A DNA stretch of 57,499 bases, from the NCBI GenBank assembly GCA_015521295.1, contig WAOL01000065.1, positions 1 through 57,499 of the forward strand, given 5' to 3'. Numbering within the stretch: the stretch's first letter is position 1; the number at the start of each line of letters is the position of its first letter. The stretch is from Desulfurococcales archaeon. GTDB lineage: Archaea > Thermoproteota > Thermoprotei_A > Sulfolobales > NBVN01. A program made the position numbers and the translations under genes. Positions 14,727 to 55,469 of the stretch are shown here, piece after piece. The notes under the pieces are model-generated. The model worked only from the letters and a program-made list of their open reading frames with translations. It ran no database searches and had not been told where the DNA came from.

Positions 14727-16736
14727 TCAGCTCCCGAGGTCAAGGAAGTCGGGGAAGTTCTCTAGAGTTAATTCAGCTTTCCTGGCCTTCCTGCTTCTGG
14801 CTCTCCTAGCACTTCGTTGAAGCTCTAATATGAACGAGTGCTTTCTCCTGGGCCTGCCTTTGGGGTTGTTAAGTAATTGAGGAATCAGAAGCCTCTCAGT
14901 GAATACCTCCGCGATAGGGCATGCTTCTATGCACGCTTTGCAACCTATGCATCTTCTGGGATCCACTACGGGACGACCTTCCTTTACCTTGATGGCGTTC
15001 GTCGGGCACCAGATCTCACAACTACCGCATGAGCAACATTTACTCCACCTAACCATAATCTTAAGTACATCAAAGGCAGTTTCTCTGGCATCGGGACCCT
15101 GAACTTCCACCTCATTAGGGCGTACTATGATGGTATTGCCTGACTTCCTAAGTGTGAGGGCACAGTCATCGTTAGGGTTATTGCTGCATACTTTCTCGGG
15201 TGGTGTGTCAGCTATGATGCTCCATTGCTCACATATGCTATCTAGGCTTAGTTGCCCATTGATTATCCTTATCCTATAATGATCCTCGCTTAGGGAGATA
15301 GGAGCCAGTGAGAGCCCACTGACCCTTTCGTAGAGTAATCGCCAGTCGCTGGGTTTCTTTATCCCTAACCAAGACTCCAGCCTTCTCCTTCCCTGAGACA
15401 GAGGGTTTAACCATCGCCATAAGTGGTACCTTATCCAGAGGTCACTCTCGTTGAGTCTTTCCTTCCACTCAATTAGCACGTGTTCCCATCTCCGCCAGCA
15501 CTCCGGGTAATTTCTCTCAACCATGTAATACTCAGCAATGTTACCTGCCGGACACATGAAGCACCCAAGCCTATCGAATCCTTTAAAGTAGAGTTCGTTT
15601 ACCGGGAGCCTCCTCTGTAGTATGTAAAACCATACTGTCAGTTGATCCCATTCCTGCAGCGGTGATATGTTGAGCGCGGCCGGCAGCCATCGATTGCGCC
15701 ACACCGCACCCGACCTGGACCTATCGACCGACTCGAAGGCCCGCTGACCTATTATTGCTAATAATCCGTTGGGGAAGTACTTCTTGTAGATTCGGGCGAT
15801 AGGAGCCATCTTAACTACTTTGCAACACCAGCGATAGTCCTTGGCAGGCGGGCCAAAGATGTTTACCGAGTCCCAGAACTTGTTGCCGGCTGACGCGGTG
15901 AGTAGCCTAAGGCCAAACTTATGGGCCACGTCATCAACGTTCTTGAGCGTCGGCGGAAGTTCGAGTCCGGTATCGTTAAACAGGATTACTGGTTCCAGCC
16001 CTGCTTCCATGGTTAGGGAGAGTGCCGTGATTGAGTCCTTACCTCCTGAGTAGGAAACCACTGGTGGGAGACCCGTTTTCTCTGCCATCATCACTAGGTT
16101 CTTAATAGCTTTCGATAATCTACTCCTTACCCAAAGGTCATTGCATTTCTCAAAGAGATTGAAGGAAGATGGCTTCCTTATTATTTCTCCCACTTGCTCC
16201 TTGAATACTGTCTGAACTCTGTAACGTCCGCGCCTAACGACGGCCAGTGCTACAGGTTCTCCCGAATTATCGATCACTACCGCCTGATTCCCTTCCCTGT
16301 CTCCGGGTCCTAAGTCCATTAGTGGCTTTGCCTTCCCCACCTTGAATGCACGTATCAGCCCTAAGTCCAGGGCTATTGGCGCGCTTACCTTATTAAGTCG
16401 CCAACGCCAAGCATACGTTGAGGGATCAAAGTACAGTCTGCCAACTATCGTGCCTCCCGAAATAACCTCCTTCATATCATCATAATGTGGTGTCTTATTC
16501 AGGTACACTGCGCCATCAACTATGAGTTCCCTATAGAGGGCATCACTCCCGAACTCGTACAGCATGGCTTCCCTAATTAGTGATAGGTCACTTGCGAACG
16601 CCGGTCTCGCGTCTCCGGGCTCCGATATGTTGACCTTAAATCCCTCACCCCCGCATCGGCTACATATCCTCTGCCTCAGCGGGACGTTGCAATTAGGGCA
16701 CCAATAAAGCGTCAGCGTCACTCCCCAAGGTCTCAC
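14727..16736 (-). CDS. PP-loop ATPase of the PAPS-reductase family, fused to an N-terminal Zn-ribbon/PUA-like region and a C-terminal 2x[4Fe-4S] ferredoxin domain
   Basis: CPNCN..CSRCGG; PP-loop SYSGGKDS; C-terminal CSCGSCEIWCP and CIGCKACIEACP; basic tail RRARSRKARK. Confidence 0.8.
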   Translation of the reverse strand: MRPWGVTLTLYWCPNCNVPLRQRICSRCGGEGFKVNISEPGDARPAFASDLSLIREAMLYEFGSDALYRELIVDGAVYLNKTPHYDDMKEVISGGTIVGRLYFDPSTYAWRWRLNKVSAPIALDLGLIRAFKVGKAKPLMDLGPGDREGNQAVVIDNSGEPVALAVVRRGRYRVQTVFKEQVGEIIRKPSSFNLFEKCNDLWVRSRLSKAIKNLVMMAEKTGLPPVVSYSGGKDSITALSLTMEAGLEPVILFNDTGLELPPTLKNVDDVAHKFGLRLLTASAGNKFWDSVNIFGPPAKDYRWCCKVVKMAPIARIYKKYFPNGLLAIIGQRAFESVDRSRSGAVWRNRWLPAALNISPLQEWDQLTVWFYILQRRLPVNELYFKGFDRLGCFMCPAGNIAEYYMVERNYPECWRRWEHVLIEWKERLNESDLWIRYHLWRWLNPLSQGRRRLESWLGIKKPSDWRLLYERVSGLSLAPISLSEDHYRIRIINGQLSLDSICEQWSIIADTPPEKVCSNNPNDDCALTLRKSGNTIIVRPNEVEVQGPDARETAFDVLKIMVRWSKCCSCGSCEIWCPTNAIKVKEGRPVVDPRRCIGCKACIEACPIAEVFTERLLIPQLLNNPKGRPRRKHSFILELQRSARRARSRKARKAELTLENFPDFLDLGS

Positions 16737-45937: not shown

Positions 45938-46660
45938 TCACGGTAATAGCATCTTAACGGACGTTACGAGAAGCACGCAACCGATAATTAACCTGAGTGT
46001 TTGAGGCTTCATCTTAACCGCCAGCCGGGACCCTATGGACGCACCTACAAGCGACCCAGAAACGAAAGGTATAGCGACATCGTAAATTACCTCACCATGG
46101 AGTATGTGTTGGGTTGTAGCTATCACTGCTGTGGGGAATATCGTGAAGAACGACGTAGCCACGGCGTTGTGTATGGGCATACCTAAAACCGTGGTGTAGA
46201 GCGGCATGTTCACGGAGCCGCCTGCGGTCCCTGTTATTCCTGCTATGAAGCCTGCTATGAGACCTACGAAAGCGCACTTAAGTAATGTGTTTAGTGATGG
46301 GTTGACACCATAGTCGTTTTCCTCCCCCTCCTTTCTCACTTTCTTCCTTATGAATGCGGAGAGGAGTCTGAGGCTATAGATCATTATGAATGAACCAACA
46401 ATGAACTTCAGTATCGATGAATTCAGGAGCCCTGAAAGGTAGGCGCCAACGTACGATGATGGTATCATTGCCGCGAGAGCCACTAGCCCTACGCGGTAAT
46501 TCACCTTACCACTTCTTAAATAGTTCACCATACTCACGAAGCTTATGAAGGTGATTACGAACTTGCTGGTTCCTACGGCGTTGCTCATTCCTAGCCCTAA
46601 GAAGTAGAATAGGGGGACCATGAATACCCCGCCCCCAATTCCGGCCATGGAGGAAAGCAA
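45938..46660 (-). CDS. TauE/SafE-family anion permease (copy 1); true N-terminus probably extends to about 46711-46718
   Basis: AGIGGGVFMVPL motif repeated as GTAGGSVNMPL. The upstream in-frame HWLTYVAYAGIAITIS looks like the missing first TM helix. Confidence 0.75.
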   Translation of the reverse strand: MLSSMAGIGGGVFMVPLFYFLGLGMSNAVGTSKFVITFISFVSMVNYLRSGKVNYRVGLVALAAMIPSSYVGAYLSGLLNSSILKFIVGSFIMIYSLRLLSAFIRKKVRKEGEENDYGVNPSLNTLLKCAFVGLIAGFIAGITGTAGGSVNMPLYTTVLGMPIHNAVATSFFTIFPTAVIATTQHILHGEVIYDVAIPFVSGSLVGASIGSRLAVKMKPQTLRLIIGCVLLVTSVKMLLP

Positions 46661-46766
46661 GGATATAGTAATGGCGATGCCGGCGTAGGCAACGTACGTT
46701 AACCAATGTATGGTGCATGCACCCGCTTACTTAGTGGTTGAGTTAAAACCTGCATTTAAATCACCT

Positions 46767-48116
46767 TTAGGACTTAGAGAGCATCAGTTCCCTCAAGTAA
46801 TCAGCTATGCGCTCTATAGGCATCTCACCGCCCATCCCGCGAGACACCGTCCCTTCAGGGTCGTAGACGGTGAACACGCCATGCCAGTCATGAACCGCGT
46901 CGTCAGGCCCTCTGTCGTTCTCCGGAAGGAACGGAGTGTCCCACCCAACGGTTCCAGCAGCGCGCCAGCTTAGGTCGTCGAAGTACGCCATCAGGTCAGG
47001 CGGGTCACCCCGCACTTCAGGGTATATTTCCTCCGGTCTAAGCACTATGTTGCGCCATAACGCGCCATTATCGCCTTTCACTCTCCGTAAGTCGTTGGAG
47101 AGTTGCGTTATGACGTCATCGAATTCTTCCTTGCCGACAATTCCCTTCGGTTCCCTGCCCTTTAGGTTGATGAAGATGCGTGAGTAGTAGCCTCCCCAGC
47201 CCCAAGCTATTGTTGAGTCCCAGTCAATCATCTCTCTGGTTAGGTCAGTGCCGGGCTTCTTCGGCTTCTCCTTCAGCTTCAGGTACCCCTCCTTAATGAG
47301 CCATTCGTTCACGGCGAACGCGCCAGCCATAGACTTGACGCCATGGTCGGACGCAACAACTATTATCGTGTCCTTCGGCAATGCTTTCCTGATTCTCTTG
47401 AACCCCTCGTCTATTAACTTGTAGTAGTCGGGGATCACACGTGATAGCTCCTTGTTCTCCTCGTACCTAGGGTGGGAGACGTCGAAGTACTTCCAGAAGG
47501 CATGATGTATTCTGTCAATACCTATCTCAACGTATATGAAGAGGTCCCATGCTTTGCGCTTAACTAGGTACTCAATTATCTTCAGGTGCTGCCTAGTCAT
47601 CTGGAAGAGTTCGTCCCTAACCCTCTCCTTATCATGCCTCCTGAACTTCACGTCGAATATGAGTGGTCCGAACCTCGACTCTAGCTCATGCTTAAGCCAC
47701 GGCGGGAACGCGTACTGGTTTTCCGGGCCCGGAGTCATGAAGTCCGTTATCATGAAGCCCCTCACGGGCCTCGGCGGATATGTTGGGGGCACCCCGAAAA
47801 TCCCTACACGACCGCCAGCACGGCTGATGGTATCCCATAGTGTCTGATGCTTAATGAAGTTCGAGTTTATTATGTAGGTGTGTCCAACATCCCCAGGCTT
47901 CCTATGCCTGAACCCATAAATGCCTAACTCTCCCGGCGTCTTACCGGTGAACATCACTAGCCACGCCGGTATCGTTATTGGCGGGTGGCAGGTGCGCATT
48001 AACCACCTTCTGGAGTCATCTATGAGCGAGCCCAACACGGGAATGTCGACACCGTACCTCTCGTATAGGGTTTTCGGCGGCGCCGAGTCCAGCCCAAGCA
48101 CGAATACTTTCCTCAA
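46767..48116 (-). CDS. Alkaline-phosphatase-superfamily nucleotide pyrophosphatase/phosphodiesterase (NPP)-like enzyme
   Basis: VLGLDSA...PPITIPAW..MFTGK.PGE.GI N-terminal metal/nucleophile motif and a later ASDHG. No signal peptide or TM segment. Confidence 0.7.
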   Translation of the reverse strand: MRKVFVLGLDSAPPKTLYERYGVDIPVLGSLIDDSRRWLMRTCHPPITIPAWLVMFTGKTPGELGIYGFRHRKPGDVGHTYIINSNFIKHQTLWDTISRAGGRVGIFGVPPTYPPRPVRGFMITDFMTPGPENQYAFPPWLKHELESRFGPLIFDVKFRRHDKERVRDELFQMTRQHLKIIEYLVKRKAWDLFIYVEIGIDRIHHAFWKYFDVSHPRYEENKELSRVIPDYYKLIDEGFKRIRKALPKDTIIVVASDHGVKSMAGAFAVNEWLIKEGYLKLKEKPKKPGTDLTREMIDWDSTIAWGWGGYYSRIFINLKGREPKGIVGKEEFDDVITQLSNDLRRVKGDNGALWRNIVLRPEEIYPEVRGDPPDLMAYFDDLSWRAAGTVGWDTPFLPENDRGPDDAVHDWHGVFTVYDPEGTVSRGMGGEMPIERIADYLRELMLSKS

Positions 48117-48118
48117 AT

Positions 48119-49213
48119 CTACTGCCCCTCCTTACTTAGGTCACGGCATAAATGTGTGGTTATTTTACCTAGCACTTCATCGCAGTCCTCTCCCTCGGAG
48201 CACGTCACCACGAACACCATGTCCTTACCACCCACGCTCAGTCCCTCCTCTCTCAGCTTCTCAAGGAACCTCCTTAGCGGTACGGAATAGCTTCTGACGT
48301 ACACGTACGTCACGTTGAGTGACGGTATGTTATGCGCTAGTAGGATCACGTTGTCCGGATACGCGCGTGCTAGCGACCTTCCAACGTATGAAGTCACTAG
48401 GGAGTCTAGGCTTAACTTCCATATCTTCACACCGGGACAGGGCTCCTCAAGGCTCTGGAGACGGTCGTAGGCACTGTCAACATAACGTGCCGCTGACTCA
48501 TGAGCATCAATCAATACCTCGTCATGTAAAACACCTCTAACACCCTCCTCTGCAAGCACTTGAACCGCGTACTCGATGCACTTACTGTTCACAATCCTGT
48601 AGCAGGAGTCTATGAGTTCAGCCGCCCTAACGAAGTCGTTGAGGGTCATGTTGAGCTCAGCGGCAACGTTATCAACAAACGTCACGTGCTCGCTCGTAGC
48701 GAGTGCTGGCCCAAGGTCTCCAACGATACCTAGTGCCACCAAATCAACGATGTCAGAGGGTGTGTTAAGAAGTTCGTAGAGTACCCACGTGGTTGAGGGG
48801 TATTCGGCCTCGCTCATGCCTAGTGCTACGGGGTTACAGCAGTGTTCCCGAGCATTACAGCTTAACTCAACAGCGTGGTGATCAACGATGAATGCCCGAA
48901 GCCCCTGAGGCACTTGCGCTAACACCTCGTCGGGGCGTGCTCCGTAATCCAGCATCACCAGGGTGTCAGCCCCGCTCTTCTTAATCTCATTGGGGTTCAG
49001 AGCGCTTGCCCCATACACACCTATCTTAGGTGTGCTCATACCCACTATGCGGGGTCCCAGCACCCGCAGGAGTATTGCTGCGGACGCCACGCCGTCAGCA
49101 TCCCAGTGATGTAGCACGTAAACCTTCCTACCTTTCTTAAGGACTCCCTCAATAAACTCAGCGCATGCGGGGATTTCCCTAAGTGACGAACGGGTTGTCG
49201 AAGCTGAGGACAA
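48119..49213 (-). CDS. DHH-family phosphoesterase
   Basis: VLHHWDADGVAS (motifs I/II), DYG, IVDHH (DHH motif), and a C-terminal GGK in place of the DHHA1 GGH. Confidence 0.75.
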   Translation of the reverse strand: MSSASTTRSSLREIPACAEFIEGVLKKGRKVYVLHHWDADGVASAAILLRVLGPRIVGMSTPKIGVYGASALNPNEIKKSGADTLVMLDYGARPDEVLAQVPQGLRAFIVDHHAVELSCNAREHCCNPVALGMSEAEYPSTTWVLYELLNTPSDIVDLVALGIVGDLGPALATSEHVTFVDNVAAELNMTLNDFVRAAELIDSCYRIVNSKCIEYAVQVLAEEGVRGVLHDEVLIDAHESAARYVDSAYDRLQSLEEPCPGVKIWKLSLDSLVTSYVGRSLARAYPDNVILLAHNIPSLNVTYVYVRSYSVPLRRFLEKLREEGLSVGGKDMVFVVTCSEGEDCDEVLGKITTHLCRDLSKEGQ

Positions 49214-50327
49214 CTTCCGCTACCTCCGGCCTCATCATGTATTCCGGTGGTTTCTCCTTATTCCTTATCATTTTCCTGAGCTTGGTTCCGCTTATCCTCA
49301 CCCTGAATTCGTCGCTGTGCGGGCAGATCTTAGCGTTTACCATGCCTCCACACTTTTTGCAGTAGAATGACTCACGTATGAATAGCGGCGTTATGCCTAG
49401 GTCGGGGAACTCGTTGAAGAGGTCCCACGCCTCGTATGGTCCGTAGTAATTACCTACGCCAGCGTGGTCCCTGCCCACGATGAAGTGTGTGCATCCGAAG
49501 TTCTTCCTAACTATCGCGTGGTGTATTGCTTCCCTAGGTCCCGCGTACCTCATCTGCATCCAGAGCACGGAGAACACGACCGAGTCCTTCGGGTAGTAGT
49601 GCTTGATTAGTGCCTCGTAAGCAGCCACTATAACCTCGTCCTTGAAGTCGCCGGGTTTCTTCCACCCCACTAATGGGTGAACTAGGAGGCCGTCAACGAA
49701 TGTTAAGGCAGCTTTCTGGACGTACTCATGCCCTAAGTGCGGCACGTTACGTGTCTGGAACGCCACTATGGTTCTCCACCCCTTCTCTTTGAACAGCACC
49801 CTCGTCTCAAGCGGTGTGAGCGCGTATCTGTCGAAGGGGTGTTTCAGCGGGTTAAGCAGGTCTATCGGGCCTCCAATCAGTAGTTCCTTACGGGCGTACG
49901 TGCGGGCAACACCGGGGTGGTTGGGGTCCTCAGTCTTAAACACGTGCCTAGCGAACTCCTTCTTATCCCACTCGTAAATCTCCTCGACCTTCATGACGGC
50001 TAGGATCTGACCCTCGTGCGTTAAGGCCACGTCATCACCTTCCTTGACTCCTTGGATCTCATCCTTGCGTACGTCGAGTACTATGGGTATGGTCCAGGGC
50101 GTGTCGTCCGATAACCTCATGTCGTAGAGTACGTGCTCGTAGTCCTCCCTAAGCAGGAATCCCTGGAGGGGTGAGTACGCACCATACGCTATGTTGTGGA
50201 TATCTGACGCGGTATTCTTTGTTACCTCAATACTGTGAAGCTCCTTCGCCTCCTCGAGGAGGGCATCCCTCCTTCTTCCCTTAGCAACCCTATTGACTAA
50301 CCTCCCCCCATGCGGTCTAGACACCAT
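49179..50327 (-). CDS. sat: Sulfate adenylyltransferase (ATP sulfurylase)
   Basis: FQTRNVPHLGHEY and VGRDHAGVG motifs. Confidence 0.92.
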   Translation of the reverse strand: MVSRPHGGRLVNRVAKGRRRDALLEEAKELHSIEVTKNTASDIHNIAYGAYSPLQGFLLREDYEHVLYDMRLSDDTPWTIPIVLDVRKDEIQGVKEGDDVALTHEGQILAVMKVEEIYEWDKKEFARHVFKTEDPNHPGVARTYARKELLIGGPIDLLNPLKHPFDRYALTPLETRVLFKEKGWRTIVAFQTRNVPHLGHEYVQKAALTFVDGLLVHPLVGWKKPGDFKDEVIVAAYEALIKHYYPKDSVVFSVLWMQMRYAGPREAIHHAIVRKNFGCTHFIVGRDHAGVGNYYGPYEAWDLFNEFPDLGITPLFIRESFYCKKCGGMVNAKICPHSDEFRVRISGTKLRKMIRNKEKPPEYMMRPEVAEVVLSFDNPFVT

Positions 50328-50341
50328 CCCGCATCACCTCC

Positions 50342-50587
50342 TTAAATGTAGCCTAACCTACGGAGCTTCTCTATAATCTTCTCCTTTTCCTCCTCGGTGA
50401 ATGGCTCCTCAGCCTCACGGGCCCTCTCATACTCAACAACTACTTCCCTGAGCACGTAGGTAACGAACTGGGAGACATTGGCAAAGCCCGTACCCTCTAT
50501 GAGTTTCTTTATCCTATTGTACAACGTCACGGGTATTGAGACCGTGGTGTAGCGGCTTCTACCGCCTTTCTTCCCTCCCTCTGGCAA
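50342..50587 (-). CDS. RHH (CopG-like) regulator with conserved acidic/LGY C-terminal tail (copy 1)
   Basis: TVSIPVTLYNRIKKLIEGTGFANVSQFVTYVLREVV, with a tail EEEKEKIIEKLRRLGYI. TTG start. Confidence 0.65.
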   Translation of the reverse strand: MPEGGKKGGRSRYTTVSIPVTLYNRIKKLIEGTGFANVSQFVTYVLREVVVEYERAREAEEPFTEEEKEKIIEKLRRLGYI

Positions 50588-50615
50588 GTGAGCACCCGTG
50601 AATAAGTTGCGGTAG

Positions 50616-50645
50616 CAATTAAATATAATTACCCGTAATTAATTG
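50616..50645. promoter_or_regulatory. AT-rich nested inverted repeat in the RHH-copy-1/sat promoter (candidate operator overlapping the TATA region)
   Basis: CAATT-aaatat-AATTAC-cc-GTAATT-AATTG, lying 30-58 nt upstream of TTG 50587 on the minus strand. Confidence 0.3.
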
Positions 50646-50694
50646 AGCAGAAAGTTACTCCTAAAAAGCTAGCGTGTTACTTAGCTACGTACCC

Positions 50695-50910
50695 TCACAG
50701 GTACCCTAAGGATCTGAGCCTCTCCTTAACCTTCTCCTCCTCTTCCTTAGTGTAGCCAGCACTAGCTTCCTCCTCGGTTGAGAGTACCTCGTTAATGACG
50801 AACTCAACGAATTCCCTTACTGAGGAGAAGCCCCCGTTCTCCTCAATATACTTCTTCACCTTCTCATAGAGCTCCCTCGATATCTCGATGCTTACAGTTT
50901 CCTCACCCAT
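50695..50910 (-). CDS. RHH (CopG-like) regulator with conserved acidic/LGY C-terminal tail (copy 2)
   Basis: TVSIEISRELYEKVKKYIEENGGFSSVREFVEFVINEVL, with a tail KEEEEKVKERLRSLGYL. ATG 50910 is preferred over the ORF-track start at 50967. Confidence 0.65.
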   Translation of the reverse strand: MGEETVSIEISRELYEKVKKYIEENGGFSSVREFVEFVINEVLSTEEEASAGYTKEEEEKVKERLRSLGYL

Positions 50911-51000
50911 CCCATTAACCCTCAATCTAATGAGGAGTTTTCCCAATAAGAGTGTTTGCGTAAACACACAGTACTAGCTTAATGGTGGGAGATGCACCTC

Positions 51001-51777
51001 TCACAATACAGTGAGTGCCTTAATGAGCACGGCTAAGGCCAGGAAAGTCATGCCTGCCGTCATGACTTTCCTTAAAGTCGTGTTTGATGCAACCTTAACG
51101 GTCTTGGCTACCAACGGCGCGCTCAGCGCTGTTCCGGCAATCATTGGCGCTATGAGTGCTGGGTTAAGTAGCCCGGTAAGCCCATACAGGATAACTGCGG
51201 TTACCTCAGTTATGAATTCCGCCATGGACGTGACAGCGACTGCTGACTTTGGATTAACCCCCAGTATTAGTTGCCCCGCGGTCACTATGGGGCCGTATCC
51301 ACCACCGGTTAATCCCTTGTTGAAGCTGGCGACAGTGGCTATGAGGAAAAGCTTCTTAGTCGAGTACTTAACCCTGACCCTCCTGCTTAACACGACCAGA
51401 ACGCTCATGGATAGCATTAAGATGGCTACGTAGGCCTTAAGTAAGTTCACCGGCATGTGTAGCATAAGGATCACAGCAACGAGGGGGCCCACTATCCCTG
51501 AGACCCCTAGTATTATGGCTCGCCTCGATTCCTCGCCTCCCGGCCTTAGGTCGGCGTTCCCAAACCTATGATGCATAAGGGAGAGCACGGAGTTCCCCAC
51601 TAACTGGGAAACAACTACCGAAGAGACAGCGTTGAGCGGGTTAACCCCTAGAAGTATGAGTACTGGCGTTAAGATTGTTCCGTACCCCATCCCTATGACG
51701 CCACTGACGTACTGCGTCGCTAGTGCTAAGGTGATTAGGGTCGTGGTCCACGCTAGCGATGCTGGCTCTAACGGCAT
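51001..51777 (-). CDS. TauE/SafE-family anion permease (copy 2)
   Basis: GVIGMGYGTILTPVL motif and its repeat in the second half. ATG 51777 is preferred, since a palindromic ATAATTAT x2 TATA region lies at 51790-51807. Confidence 0.75.
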   Translation of the reverse strand: MPLEPASLAWTTTLITLALATQYVSGVIGMGYGTILTPVLILLGVNPLNAVSSVVVSQLVGNSVLSLMHHRFGNADLRPGGEESRRAIILGVSGIVGPLVAVILMLHMPVNLLKAYVAILMLSMSVLVVLSRRVRVKYSTKKLFLIATVASFNKGLTGGGYGPIVTAGQLILGVNPKSAVAVTSMAEFITEVTAVILYGLTGLLNPALIAPMIAGTALSAPLVAKTVKVASNTTLRKVMTAGMTFLALAVLIKALTVL

Positions 51778-51893
51778 TCTCTCCCCATAATTATTTATAA
51801 TTATCACTAATTAAAAATAATTACTCTTAATGTCGCGGAGAAGGCTCATGTACGGGGTGCCTTAAGAAGCGGTCAGGAAAACGTTGCTCTGGC

Positions 51894-52439
51894 TTAAATC
51901 TCGATCCCGTGCTTCCTGAGTAGGTTGAGCACAGCTTCCTTATTCTTCTCTGGCGGATCGTGCTCAGTGTCTATTACTAGGTCGGGGTTCTCCGGCGGTT
52001 CGTATGGATCGCTTATGCCTGTGAAGTGTTGTATCTCCCCTTTCAAGGCCTTCTTGTAGAGCCCCTTCGGATCCCTCCTTATGCATTCCTCAACACTGCA
52101 CTTAACCCAGATTTCTAGGAAGGGGACCTCCTCAGCTATAATGTCCTTAATCTTCTTCCTTACGTCCCTGTAGGGTGACACGAAGCTGCATAGAACTATC
52201 ACACCGTTCCTCGCTAGTAGCCTCGCTATCCATGCGACCCTGAGGAGGTGGCGTTCCCTCTCCTCCTTCGTGAAGCCGGCCCCGACGTTTATTGTTTTCC
52301 TGACCCAGTCCCCGTCTAGGAGCTCCACCCTGTACCCCGCCTTACTTAACTCCTCCTTAACTAGGGAAGCCACAGTTGTCTTACCACTTGCGGGGAGTCC
52401 CGTGAACCATGCGACTAAGCCTTTCTCTATGCACTTCAT
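51894..52439 (-). CDS. cysC: Adenylylsulfate (APS) kinase
   Basis: WFTGLPASGKTT P-loop, LDGD, and the FVSPY pattern. Confidence 0.9.
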   Translation of the reverse strand: MKCIEKGLVAWFTGLPASGKTTVASLVKEELSKAGYRVELLDGDWVRKTINVGAGFTKEERERHLLRVAWIARLLARNGVIVLCSFVSPYRDVRKKIKDIIAEEVPFLEIWVKCSVEECIRRDPKGLYKKALKGEIQHFTGISDPYEPPENPDLVIDTEHDPPEKNKEAVLNLLRKHGIEI

Positions 52440-52532: not shown

Positions 52533-53927
52533 TTGATATTGAGCGTAAGCAACCATGACCCTGTGGACGCGGTCGTTAGTGGGGAGGCATGGATAGCTAT
52601 TTACGGCATGGGGTACGTTGGCAGGGCATTAACTGCGGCTTTCCTCAGGCGTGGTCTGCGGGTAATCGGCGTCGATATCGATAAGAGTAAGCTAAATGAC
52701 ATTCGAGAGGGCCGCGTGAAGTTCTTTGAAGCAGAGGTCAGGGAAGCTATTGCTGAAGGTCTTAAGACGGGTGCCTTGAAATTAACGAGTGATGCTGTCG
52801 AGGCGTCCCGTCAATCAAGGGTTAAGGTAGTTACGGTCCCTATACACTTCGACTGGAACCACAGGATCGTGAGATTTGATGCTTTCATTGACGCAGTAGC
52901 ATCCGTGGGTGAGGGGCTAAGTGCTGGAGACCTAGTGGTAATTGAGTCCAGTGCACCGCCAGGCACTACTGAACGTGTCGCTAGACCGGTTCTTGAATCC
53001 ATAAGTGGGTTAAGAGCTGAGGAAGACTTCCTCCTCGCCTATAGTCCGGAGCGCGTCTACGTTGGCAGAGCTTTAAGGGACATTGAGGAGAACTACCCTA
53101 AGATCGTGGCTGGGATCGGTCCCCAGAGCCTTGACGCGGTAGTGCGCCTCTACTCGCTAGTCGCTCGTAAGGGCGTCGTGAGGCTTTCCTCGACGATCGC
53201 GGCGGAGTTCGAGAAGCTTGCTGAGGGAGTGTATAGGGACGTAGTGATAGCGCTTTCCAACGAGCTTGCCTTAGCGGCCCAAGCACTAGGCGTTAACTAC
53301 TACGAGGTTAGGGAAGTAGCTAACACTCAGCCTTACTGCCACCTACTCCTGCCCGGTCCCGGCGTGGGTGGGCCGTGTATACCCTCGTACCCATACTTCC
53401 TGATAGGTGAGGCGACGAAGGTCGGGGTCTCGATGGAGTTAACGAGGCTTGCCAGAATCATTAACGAGTCCATGCCCTCAATCGTTGCTGACTTAGCCCA
53501 CAGGCTGGTAGTTAAGCATGGACTGAAGCCCAGGGGTGTGCGGGTAGCTGTCCTTGGCGATGCCTTCAGGGGGGACATCGACGATCCACGCCTATCACCG
53601 ACACATGGCGTGGTTTCCACACTCCTCAGTAGGGGATATAGGGACATTATCGTGCATGACCCACTCGTGATCAAGGATGACTACTTGAGTGAGTTAGGTG
53701 TGGGCTTAACAAACAACTTACGTGAGGCCCTCAAGGACTCATTACTGGTAATCGTATGCGTTAGGCACTCAGCTTACTGGAGGCTTAAGGTGTCCAGCAT
53801 AGTCGAGTTTTCTGGGCGTGAGCCGCTAATCGTTGACGCCGTTAACGTGCTTCACGACGATGTCAACTACAGCGTTAGGGGTAGGTTACTCGTGCTGGGT
53901 GTCGGTGACCTCAAGAAGTGTCCTTAG
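52533..53927 (+). CDS. UDP-sugar 6-dehydrogenase (WbpA/WecC-like)
   Basis: Rossmann IAIYGMGYVG and the catalytic region GPGVGGPCIP. Confidence 0.85.
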   Translation: MILSVSNHDPVDAVVSGEAWIAIYGMGYVGRALTAAFLRRGLRVIGVDIDKSKLNDIREGRVKFFEAEVREAIAEGLKTGALKLTSDAVEASRQSRVKVVTVPIHFDWNHRIVRFDAFIDAVASVGEGLSAGDLVVIESSAPPGTTERVARPVLESISGLRAEEDFLLAYSPERVYVGRALRDIEENYPKIVAGIGPQSLDAVVRLYSLVARKGVVRLSSTIAAEFEKLAEGVYRDVVIALSNELALAAQALGVNYYEVREVANTQPYCHLLLPGPGVGGPCIPSYPYFLIGEATKVGVSMELTRLARIINESMPSIVADLAHRLVVKHGLKPRGVRVAVLGDAFRGDIDDPRLSPTHGVVSTLLSRGYRDIIVHDPLVIKDDYLSELGVGLTNNLREALKDSLLVIVCVRHSAYWRLKVSSIVEFSGREPLIVDAVNVLHDDVNYSVRGRLLVLGVGDLKKCP

Positions 53928-54830
53928 CCCGTCAACAAGCTCTATCTTAGGCTCCCACCCCAACACCTTCCTAGCTCTTTCCACCGACGCGACACTGTGC
54001 CTTATGTCACCCTTCCTAGGCGGGGCGTACCTAACCGGAACCTCCCTCCCTACTACACTCATTACCAACTTAGCCAGCTCGTTGATAGTCGTTCTCGTTC
54101 CTGTTCCTATGTTTAGGGTTGCGCACGTTTCAGTGGCGGTTAGCGCTTTAATTACGGCCTCCACCACGTCCTCAACGTGGATGAAGTCCCGGCTCTGTTT
54201 GCCGTCACCATATATTACTATCTCCTTCCTGTTCATTACTGCGTGGATGAACTTCGTTATGACTCCAGAGTAGGGGCTTGAGGGATTCTGTCCCGGACCG
54301 TACACGTTGAATAAGCGTAGGATAACATATTCAGGCTTCTCCAAGCTTTTCATTAAACTCTCGAGGGCAAGCTCTCCCGCGAGCTTTGAGGCTCCATAAG
54401 GTGATATTGGCTTCGTTGGGTGCTCCTCATCTATGGGTAGGTACTTCGGGATGCCGTACACCGCAGCCGAACTCAGGTAAATCACCTTTTCTACGCCAGC
54501 ACTAATCGCTGCCCTAACCACTGCGGCAGTTCCTTCCGCGTTGACGTGCATGTACGTGTGCGGTTTCTCGACGCTCTCAGCAACATCTATTAGTGCAGCC
54601 GAATGTACTACCGCGTTGGGCCTCAAGCGGTTTAGGGCTTCATGCATTGCGGCGTAGTCCGTTATGTCTGCCTTAAGCAGGTCTATGTTGAGTTGCTTGA
54701 GTGTTGCTAACCCCCTTGGGGAGGGTCTTGAAAGGTCATCTATGACTGCCACCTCATGACCTTGCCTCACTAACTTCATAACTATGTGATGCCCTATGAA
54801 GCCAGCACCGCCAGTGACAACTACCCTCAC
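53886..54830 (-). CDS. NAD-dependent nucleotide-sugar epimerase/dehydratase (SDR)
   Basis: VVTGGAGFIGHH and YGASK (YxxxK). Confidence 0.85.
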   Translation of the reverse strand: MRVVVTGGAGFIGHHIVMKLVRQGHEVAVIDDLSRPSPRGLATLKQLNIDLLKADITDYAAMHEALNRLRPNAVVHSAALIDVAESVEKPHTYMHVNAEGTAAVVRAAISAGVEKVIYLSSAAVYGIPKYLPIDEEHPTKPISPYGASKLAGELALESLMKSLEKPEYVILRLFNVYGPGQNPSSPYSGVITKFIHAVMNRKEIVIYGDGKQSRDFIHVEDVVEAVIKALTATETCATLNIGTGTRTTINELAKLVMSVVGREVPVRYAPPRKGDIRHSVASVERARKVLGWEPKIELVDGLRTLLEVTDTQHE

Positions 54831-54836
54831 TACCCA

Positions 54837-55469
54837 CTACCTCTCAAGAAGTGCTAGGTGTTTCCTAAGTATCCTCACATCCTTCCCACAGTGCCCGCAC
54901 CTGAACGTCACCGCCTCCTCATCCTCCTTAACAGGCTTACTCAGGTCTAATGGTCTTCCGCAGTAGCACACGAAACCCCTAACACGCGCAGGGTTCCCGT
55001 AAACCAGGGCGTGCGGAGGCACATCCTTAGTGACGACCGCCCCAGCACCAACCATCGCATACTCCCCTATAGTCACACCACACACGATCGTTGCATTCGC
55101 ACCTATGGATGCACCCTTCTTAATCAAGGTCGGCACGACTTCCCAATTCTCATTGAAAGACCTCGGATACAGGTCGTTCGTGAGCGTGGCGTGTGGGCCT
55201 AGGAAAACATCGTCCTCAACCTTAACCCCCCTGTAGACGGAGACGAAGTTCTGGATCTTTACCCTATCACCTATCTCGACCCCAACATCAATATACACGC
55301 CCTTACCTATGTTACAGTTCCTCCCTATCTTAGCGCCTGCGCGCACGTGTGCGAAGTGCCATATCCTCGTCCCCTCACCTATCTCCGCCCCCTCCTCAAC
55401 GACGGCGGTAGGGTGTACAAAGTAAGACCTGCTTTTCCTAGGTCCGCCCACGCTGAATTCAGCCTCCAT
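54837..55469 (-). CDS. Left-handed beta-helix N-acetyltransferase (WbpD/WlbB-like) with a C-terminal Cys4 ribbon
   Basis: Hexapeptide repeats. IWHFAHV...[18 protein letters not shown] resembles WlbB. CYCG...CGHCG. Confidence 0.8.

Follow-up and report, generated by a model that had tools for sequence, protein, structure and literature searches.

An archaeal sulfate-activation island as a probable further copy of the published PAPS-supply cassette, with sulfation as its likely end use

Where does activated sulfate go in an archaeon that shows neither a route to reduce it nor a recognisable enzyme to transfer it? The question is raised by the 57,499-nt window analysed here, contig WAOL01000065.1 of a Desulfurococcales archaeon (contig C65 of a 1.39-Mb genome, 98.4% complete), which carries at 45938-52439 an island of eight consecutive open reading frames (ORFs), all on the minus strand. 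Two of them, sat and cysC, encode the enzymes that make 3'-phosphoadenosine 5'-phosphosulfate (PAPS), and none of the eight encodes a reductase or a sulfotransferase, as an earlier note made from the sequence alone had pointed out. The island is probably another copy of a published archaeal PAPS-supply cassette in which an NPP-fold protein acts as pyrophosphatase (PPase) and sulfation is the end use. This cassette type is already described and one more copy adds little by itself; the wider question, which enzyme consumes PAPS, concerns the whole cassette family rather than the window. Many hyperthermophilic archaea spend ATP on PAPS and keep a phosphatase for 3'-phosphoadenosine 5'-phosphate (pAp), yet 52 of the 56 sampled Thermoproteota genomes that carry both the NPP gene and cysC are without a recognisable sulfotransferase. 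Identifying the PAPS consumer would show how archaeal surface glycans or lipids get sulfated.

The ORF listing agrees with the gene order given in the earlier note, i.e. cysC, a TauE gene, two small genes labelled RHH, sat, a DHH-family gene, the NPP gene and a second TauE gene (Table 1). Matches in Pfam and NCBIfam confirm six of the eight labels, those of cysC, sat, DHH, NPP and both TauE genes; the RHH label found no Pfam match and is taken up below. Sat and CysC both score above the curated equivalog or subfamily cut-offs and their genes lie 1.6 kb apart on the same strand, cysC being present as a single copy in the host genome. The sat, DHH and NPP genes are tightly packed, with the DHH ORF overlapping the sat stop and the NPP start abutting the DHH stop. 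The nearest public loci belong to Desulfurococcales archaeon metagenome-assembled genomes (MAGs), in which the NPP protein is 95-98% identical.

The earlier note had regarded this combination as no textbook operon and in doing so overlooked a published cluster (Jin et al, 2021, PMC8268124; Lee et al, 2009, as cited in PMC4463584 and PMC9653972). The five-gene cluster of Pyrococcus yayanosii comprises copG, ATP sulfurylase, a DHH phosphoesterase, a type I phosphodiesterase/nucleotide pyrophosphatase and adenosine 5'-phosphosulfate (APS) kinase (Jin et al, 2021, PMC8268124). According to that account, the DHH phosphoesterase is a pAp phosphatase of reported structure and function, the type I phosphodiesterase is speculated to degrade inorganic pyrophosphate (PPi), a DUF81/TauE gene adjoins the cluster, and further copies are listed in Ferroglobus, Aciduliprofundum, Aeropyrum pernix and Ignicoccus hospitalis; within its KEGG-based description of P. 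yayanosii, neither a sulfotransferase nor a sulfite-reducing enzyme was identifiable (PMC8268124). The corresponding cluster of Thermococcus onnurineus NA1 is TON_1704-1707 (Lee et al, 2009, J Bacteriol 191:3415, as cited in PMC4463584 and PMC9653972). With these Thermococcales clusters (TON_1704-1707; PYCH_17520-17560 plus DUF81) the window shares the sat, DHH, NPP and cysC genes, a TauE/DUF81 neighbour and the core order sat-DHH-NPP; its small gene upstream of sat, at the place of copG, is plausibly of RHH type. In a Thermococcus MAG locus of the same core order (L082), the proteins are 68%, 25%, 49% and 45% identical to the window Sat, DHH, NPP and CysC, respectively. The window differs in gene order, cysC and one TauE gene preceding the RHH genes instead of following NPP, and in carrying a pair of RHH paralogues and a second TauE gene; its DHH protein is divergent, and its host is an uncultured Desulfurococcales MAG in which no soluble family-I PPase was found. 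Methanothermococcus thermolithotrophicus likewise encodes Sat, CysC and a DHH-family PAP phosphatase together (PMC10322725; 8a8k). That organism, however, goes on to reduce PAPS with an APS-reductase-like enzyme and sulfite with the F420-dependent reductase Fsr, and it grows on sulfate, whereas no AprA-like or NIR_SIR protein was found in the window genome; its pyrophosphatase is named as WP_018154121, and no NPP gene figures in the cluster as that source presents it (PMC10322725).

We searched genome contigs with the window NPP protein (tblastn and ORF clustering) and obtained 79 loci, 74 of them not near-identical to the window. Of these 74 loci, 45 have an RHH gene around NPP, 44 have cysC, 39 sat and 37 DHH, and in 18 a TauE gene lies next to the cassette. 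The gene upstream of NPP is DHH in 32/74 and sat in 10/74; downstream, cysC is the commonest identified gene (26/74). In most related loci an RHH gene precedes sat, and in the window the DHH gene lies directly downstream of sat as in the published cluster. The loci span Desulfurococcales, Pyrodictiaceae, Acidilobaceae, Thermofilaceae, Archaeoglobaceae, Thermococci, Bathyarchaeia, an Asgard MAG and a bacterial Aminicenantes MAG. The linkage of the cassette is real, old and far beyond chance: the genes are kept together and not scattered. Among 401 sampled Thermoproteota genomes, NPP occurs in 68, cysC in 168 and both in 56. The 12 genomes with NPP only comprise seven with an NPP match of at most 42% identity and five in which the match is partial or the assembly is fragmented and the match sits on one of its small contigs. 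Where sat is not adjacent to NPP, it was found elsewhere in the genome in four of the five cases tested.

The DHH protein is well supported as a predicted pAp phosphatase, in line with the first of two readings offered by the earlier note, a PAPS-generating module with DHH as the pAp 3'-phosphatase. Its best PDB match is 8a8k (E 9e-16, residues 22-355), the structure of MtPAPP, a DHH-family enzyme characterised as a PAP phosphatase, whose gene lies near those for ATPS and APSK (Jespersen et al, 2023, PMC10322725). The motifs HHWDADG, MLDYG, VDHH and VGDLG align to the MtPAPP Mn ligands His6/Asp8/Asp10, Asp57, His76/His77 and Asp127, with all metal ligands kept. The DHH protein of the Thermococcus cassette (L082) matches MtPAPP with E 2e-137 and, end to end, the window protein with E 1e-19. 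A family-II or family-II-like PPase, the role that DHH had been given in the second reading, is rejected: the protein has the DHH N-domain only, without DHHA2, and its best relatives are MtPAPP and RecJ-type proteins. In the literature, the PPase role falls to the NPP-fold protein. The presence of a pAp phosphatase in the cassette implies a real flux through a PAPS consumer that releases pAp.

The NPP-fold protein has no match among PDB sequences and was placed by fold search alone. Its AlphaFold2 model (predicted local distance difference test score, pLDDT, 93.7) is nearest in Foldseek to ENPP5, Xac NPP and ENPP1 (TMq 0.55-0.60, E 1e-16 to 1e-17, 13-16% identity), with ENPP3, ENPP6 and ENPP7 as further relatives. 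Invariant in 34 NPP homologues are D10, T48 (in PPITIPAW), D201, H205, D257-H258 (in SDHG), H409 and R70-H71-R72, which fit a bimetal ligand set plus a Thr nucleophile, the roles being read from motifs rather than from superposition. Compared to the known NPPs (Xanthomonas NPP and ENPP1/3/5/6/7; PF01663), the window protein thus has the same fold and, judged by motif, the same site; it differs in its low sequence identity, in the invariant R-H-R after the nucleophile, and in looking cytoplasmic, as its ORF begins MRKVFVLGLDS and a signal peptide is not apparent by reading. The cited substrate of its Thermococcus counterpart, moreover, is PPi and not a nucleotide diester.

Which reaction this protein performs is central to the cassette, and its assignment as a PPase is one that we hold with moderate confidence. 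It would occupy the position of T. onnurineus TON_1705, whose P. yayanosii equivalent is PYCH_17550, and we liken it to TON_1705 by synteny and through the NPP at the same position in the Thermococcus MAG cassette, which aligns over the full length. TON_1705 is assigned as an inorganic pyrophosphatase (Lee et al, 2009, as cited in PMC4463584), with a kcat of 2.1 per s and a Km of 18.8 uM at pH 9.5 (tabulated in PMC9653972). In the host genome, family-I soluble pyrophosphatase (PF00719) was not found and a membrane H+-PPase (C17:14192-16189, minus strand) is the only PPase that was, so that a soluble PPase would be useful to the host. Several representatives of the NPP family are fusions, namely Sat-NPP (P0020), NPP-pyruvate kinase barrel-Sat (P0033), NTP_transferase-NPP (P0089), NPP-GT2 (P0013), CysC-NPP (P0042) and NPP-pyruvate kinase (P0132). 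The PPase assignment is thus supported by the cited TON_1705 assay, by the family-I null result and by the fusions to the PPi-releasing Sat and NTP_transferase.

Put together, these elements suggest the following scheme. Sulfate would enter via one or both TauE/TSUP permeases and be converted by Sat into APS and PPi; the NPP-fold enzyme, if synteny and homology are a guide, would hydrolyse PPi and so pull the unfavourable Sat reaction, while CysC would phosphorylate APS to PAPS. A PAPS consumer would then perform the sulfation, with a surface glycan or a lipid- or nucleotide-linked precursor as the likely acceptor, and release pAp, which the DHH protein, given its full-length homology and conserved ligands, would convert into AMP and Pi. 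The two RHH-like proteins would regulate the cassette. Sulfate import by the TauE genes is a reasonable inference because relatives have been assigned as sulfate transporters: one member of the TauE family, which complements an E. coli cysA mutant, has been assigned to sulfate uptake (PMC11535334), and CysZ, a sulfate transporter of C. glutamicum, is also placed in the TSUP family (PMC5840216).

The use of PAPS is best read as sulfation of an acceptor, probably a glycan, and the surroundings of the cassette fit this. The earlier note had observed that the island abuts nucleotide-sugar/glycan genes, and these are indeed a dehydrogenase, a GalE-like SDR and a NeuD/PglB-type acetyltransferase, which may make the acceptor glycan (52533..55469; Table 1). 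Near the cassette elsewhere, epimerase homologues occur in 11 loci and hexapeptide-transferase homologues in 10, and repeated neighbours also include glycosyltransferases, Wzx-like flippases, S-layer-like proteins and a DegT-type aminotransferase. In an Acidilobaceae genome (G341; L093, C1:57500-77400), about 15 kb separate NPP from sat and cysC, and the interval holds an ABC transporter, a GT28/GT4-like gene, an epimerase, GT2, GNAT, an AglH-like PF00953 gene, a second GT2 and an SfsA gene; just past NPP stands an S-layer-like gene. Note that a PPase would also be useful beside nucleotide-sugar synthesis.

The genome search suggested by the earlier note, for reductases and sulfotransferase folds, gave no NIR_SIR, aprA, CysH-grade reductase or sulfotransferase. 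Sulfotransfer_1/2/3/4 and Stf0 (PF00685, PF13469, PF03567, PF17784 and PF09037) have zero matches in the genome, the results for PF03567 and PF09037 carrying little weight as their controls were silent. A motif scan of the genome ORFs found none with both the 5'-PSB (PKSGTT-like) and the 3'-PB (RDPxDxxxS-like) sulfotransferase motifs. Canonical sulfotransferases (Sulfotransfer_1/_3), which are of a fold unrelated to that of the window NPP, would fill the step missing from the cassette, and they do stand beside cysC or sat in genomes without NPP: a sulfotransferase abuts cysC in G325 and G180, and a sulfotransferase-like gene lies directly upstream of sat in G254 (L100:1736-2512, minus strand, and L100:309-1466, minus strand, respectively; compared with L101). 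The G254 gene encodes 258 aa with PRSGTT and RDPVSVYHS motifs and scores 26.8 bits against PF13469, just below the cut-off; the host genome of the window contains no homologue of it. G254 is a complete genome in which NPP and DHH are not near sat and cysC and no NPP match was found genome-wide, whereas G182, of the same genus, has RHH-sat-NPP-cysC-RHH.

Several observations weigh against the combination of an NPP-type PPase with a sulfation end use. The PAPS-consuming enzyme was not found in the genome with the Pfam families and the motif scan, so that the end use is inferred; the cited turnover on PPi is low (2.1 per s; PMC9653972); and the fusions are imperfect witnesses, the D-H metal ligands being lost from the NPP domain of P0020 and the R-H-R motif lacking in P0033, P0089 and P0132. 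In the sulfate-reducing Archaeoglobaceae, moreover, cassettes run RHH-DHH-NPP-cysC (L055, L057, L059, L062, L064, L069, L071 and L079) or RHH-NPP-cysC (L058, L074, L078 and L081) without sat. In five such genomes the sole sat match is distant (39-41% identical, 454-470 aa; sat loci L088-L092), and the two sat loci examined (L088 and L092) are sat-x-aprB-aprA dissimilatory loci. NPP therefore tracks cysC rather than sat, which is odd for a PPase dedicated to Sat. The low turnover and the Archaeoglobaceae cassettes lend some weight to a different role, in which the NPP-fold enzyme is itself the step that spends PAPS, a non-canonical sulfotransferase or PAPS-dependent transferase acting through its Thr nucleophile on a glycan or lipid-linked sugar, with PPi hydrolysis as a side activity. 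The frequent position of cysC downstream of NPP agrees with this, as do the NPP-GT2 fusion P0013 and the CysC-NPP fusion P0042, which keep the catalytic motifs, P0013 every one of them; so do the place of NPP at the end of the Acidilobaceae glycosylation cluster, the sulfotransferases beside cysC or sat in NPP-less genomes, and the scarcity of canonical sulfotransferases (PF13469 or PF00685) alongside NPP, 4/56 in Thermoproteota with NPP and cysC versus 21/112 in cysC-bearing genomes without NPP. Yet the active site is the standard bimetal and Thr set of the NPPs, and the sites of the alkaline-phosphatase superfamily are far better at phosphoryl than at sulfuryl transfer, which weighs against NPP as a sulfotransferase. 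NPP family members are fused to the PPi-releasing Sat and NTP_transferase, an association with glycan clusters is expected for a PPase too, since nucleotide-sugar synthesis releases PPi, and NPP and sulfotransferase are not strictly exclusive, a canonical sulfotransferase lying 4.5 kb from the NPP gene in G202. Related genomes, furthermore, are not independent observations, and TON_1705 is cited for PPi hydrolysis with a micromolar Km (PMC4463584, PMC9653972). We therefore regard this role as unlikely. A more elaborate form of it, in which NPP is the PAPS-spending enzyme of hyperthermophilic archaea on glycan precursors, with an alkaline-phosphatase-type Thr/bimetal site, and the C-terminal peptide ...RL[RK]xLGY[LI] common to RHH, NPP and CysC proteins (see below) tethers the complex, seems to us rather a long shot. 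What is new on the comparative side, i.e. the Archaeoglobaceae cassettes without sat, the rarity of canonical sulfotransferases with NPP and this shared peptide, nevertheless keeps the minority reading of NPP as PAPS consumer alive; if true, it would mean a new catalytic solution for sulfuryl transfer and a new class of sulfotransferase.

The second reading of the earlier note, a front end of dissimilatory or assimilatory sulfate reduction, is rejected for this genome, and a cassette feeding reduction in the host is unlikely because no NIR_SIR, AprA or CysH-grade reductase was found. The NIR_SIR sulfite reductase domain is not found in the host genome, and neither is aprA, for which the aprB/aprA genes seen at two Archaeoglobaceae sat loci serve as a positive control. 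Across the order, NIR_SIR is confined to families f5 (16/20) and f63 (1/7), and no sampled genome of the cassette-bearing families has it (f1 0/21, f2 0/20, f3 0/21, f4 0/15 and f7 0/5). Three ORFs of the genome do contain a PAPS_reduct domain, one of them in the window (14727-16736, minus strand), where a 669-aa protein combines an N-terminal Cys-rich segment, PAPS_reduct and a C-terminal 2x[4Fe-4S] ferredoxin domain. A non-canonical assimilatory route, in which such a protein turns PAPS into sulfite that is used or exported via TauE, could build on these ORFs and on a PAPS_reduct homologue about 5 kb from the cassette in locus L007; pAp is also a product of PAPS reduction, so that the DHH phosphatase would be accounted for, the Pfam name of TauE goes back to its first description as a sulfite exporter, and published papers term the cluster 'assimilatory' (PMC8268124, PMC4463584). 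The 669-aa protein, however, falls under 'hypothetical' PRK13795 models and far short of the cut-offs for PAPS reductase (57.8 vs 154 bits) and cysH (37.8 vs 165), another of the three ORFs, the C90 protein, is TtuA/NcsA-like, and together with the NIR_SIR results this makes such a route very unlikely. A sulfoquinovose branch (PAPS to sulfite to UDP-sulfoquinovose, with the SDR as Agl3/SQD1 and the GH31 protein as sulfoquinovosidase) is not supported either: the neighbouring SDR is GalE-like (233 bits, vs 57.8 bits for the UDP-sulfoquinovose synthase model with its cut-off of 575), GH31 is MalA-like, and UDP-sulfoquinovose synthase (NF041015) has zero matches in the genus. It has also been raised, as speculation for P. 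yayanosii, that signalling is involved (Jin et al, 2021, PMC8268124), and PAPS and pAp might then be mainly signalling or regulatory nucleotides without a dedicated sulfated end product. The missing PAPS consumer and the small regulators that the cassette carries would suit this idea; the cost of the cassette and its transporters, its repeated embedding in glycan loci and the flux implied by the pAp phosphatase would not, a receptor or effector is not evident, and we find it highly improbable. Sulfation supplied by Sat and CysC, with NPP as PPase, thus remains the interpretation that we prefer.

The two small ORFs of the island are paralogues with a strand-helix-helix pattern and a common acidic tail ending LGY[IL]. 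Neither (50695-50967 and 50342-50587) has a Pfam match even at E<=10. A profile of 20 family members finds as its best match the RHH domain of NikR (2bj1), with E 0.029. The AlphaFold2 model of RHH-like protein 2 shows an extended segment (13-19), helices at 20-30 and 38-59 and a tail helix at 65-78, and its top Foldseek matches are all RHH proteins, at a non-significant E of about 1. The label that the earlier note gave to both proteins is thus plausible, if weakly supported; the counterpart of RHH-like protein 2 is named copG in the published cluster (Jin et al, 2021, PMC8268124). For RHH-like protein 1, the true start is probably the ATG at 50910.

The tail carries the motif [ED][ED]..[VI]..RL[RK].LGY[LI], which forms the extreme C-terminus of both window RHH proteins (50342-50420 and 50695-50770); no further carrier was found in the host genome. 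The same motif is the extreme end of eight NPP-family representatives (P0023, P0038, P0042, P0067, P0081, P0104, P0128 and P0132), in most of which a long non-conserved linker precedes it, and in P0033 it is internal, about 10-15 residues before the Sat PUA-like domain. The C-terminal helix of CysC proteins from euryarchaeal cassettes is closely similar to it, with exact matches in L055, L058, L059, L062, L073 and L078 and similar ...ELGYL ends in L063, L065, L066, L075-L077 and L082. The peptide may be a docking or oligomerisation motif that links cassette proteins. In the intergenic segment 50590-50690, before RHH2 and sat on the minus strand, an A/T-rich TATA-like stretch lies within an imperfect palindrome (GGTAATTATATTTAATTGCTACC), which could be a putative operator overlapping the promoter.

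Table 1. Genes of the sulfate-activation island and of its nucleotide-sugar flank, with positions in the window
Feature	Position	Strand	Evidence or remark
cysC, APS kinase (APS + ATP -> PAPS + ADP)	51894..52439	-	APS_kinase PF01583 5e-58; TIGR00455 200.9 bits, cut-off 138.7
TauE/SafE (TSUP) permease 1, putative sulfate importer	51001..51807	-	PF01925 4.7e-29
Small RHH-like protein 1	50695..50967	-	translation; C-terminal tail ...EEEEKVKERLRSLGYL
Small RHH-like protein 2, directly upstream of sat	50342..50587	-	translation; tail ...EEEKEKIIEKLRRLGYI
sat, ATP sulfurylase (sulfate + ATP -> APS + PPi)	49179..50327	-	PF01747 1.2e-95; PUA_2 3.8e-58; NF003166 566 bits, cut-off 387
DHH-family pAp phosphatase, MtPAPP type (predicted)	48119..49213	-	DHH N-domain 4e-10; homology to MtPAPP
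NPP-fold (alkaline-phosphatase superfamily) enzyme, probably cytoplasmic	46767..48116	-	PF01663 2.4e-41
TauE/SafE (TSUP) permease 2	45938..46660	-	PF01925 4.5e-51
NDP-sugar dehydrogenase	52533-53927	+	flank context of island, membership not shown
GalE-like SDR	53886-54830	-	flank context of island, membership not shown
NeuD/PglB-type acetyltransferase	54837-55469	-	flank context of island, membership not shown

In TauE permease 2, the PF01925 match starts at profile position 11, a single residue after the ORF begins, so the called TTG start may lie too far downstream and the first helix may precede it. A Cys/Met PLP enzyme gene and a metallo-beta-lactamase-fold gene also neighbour the island and are kept only in near-identical relatives.

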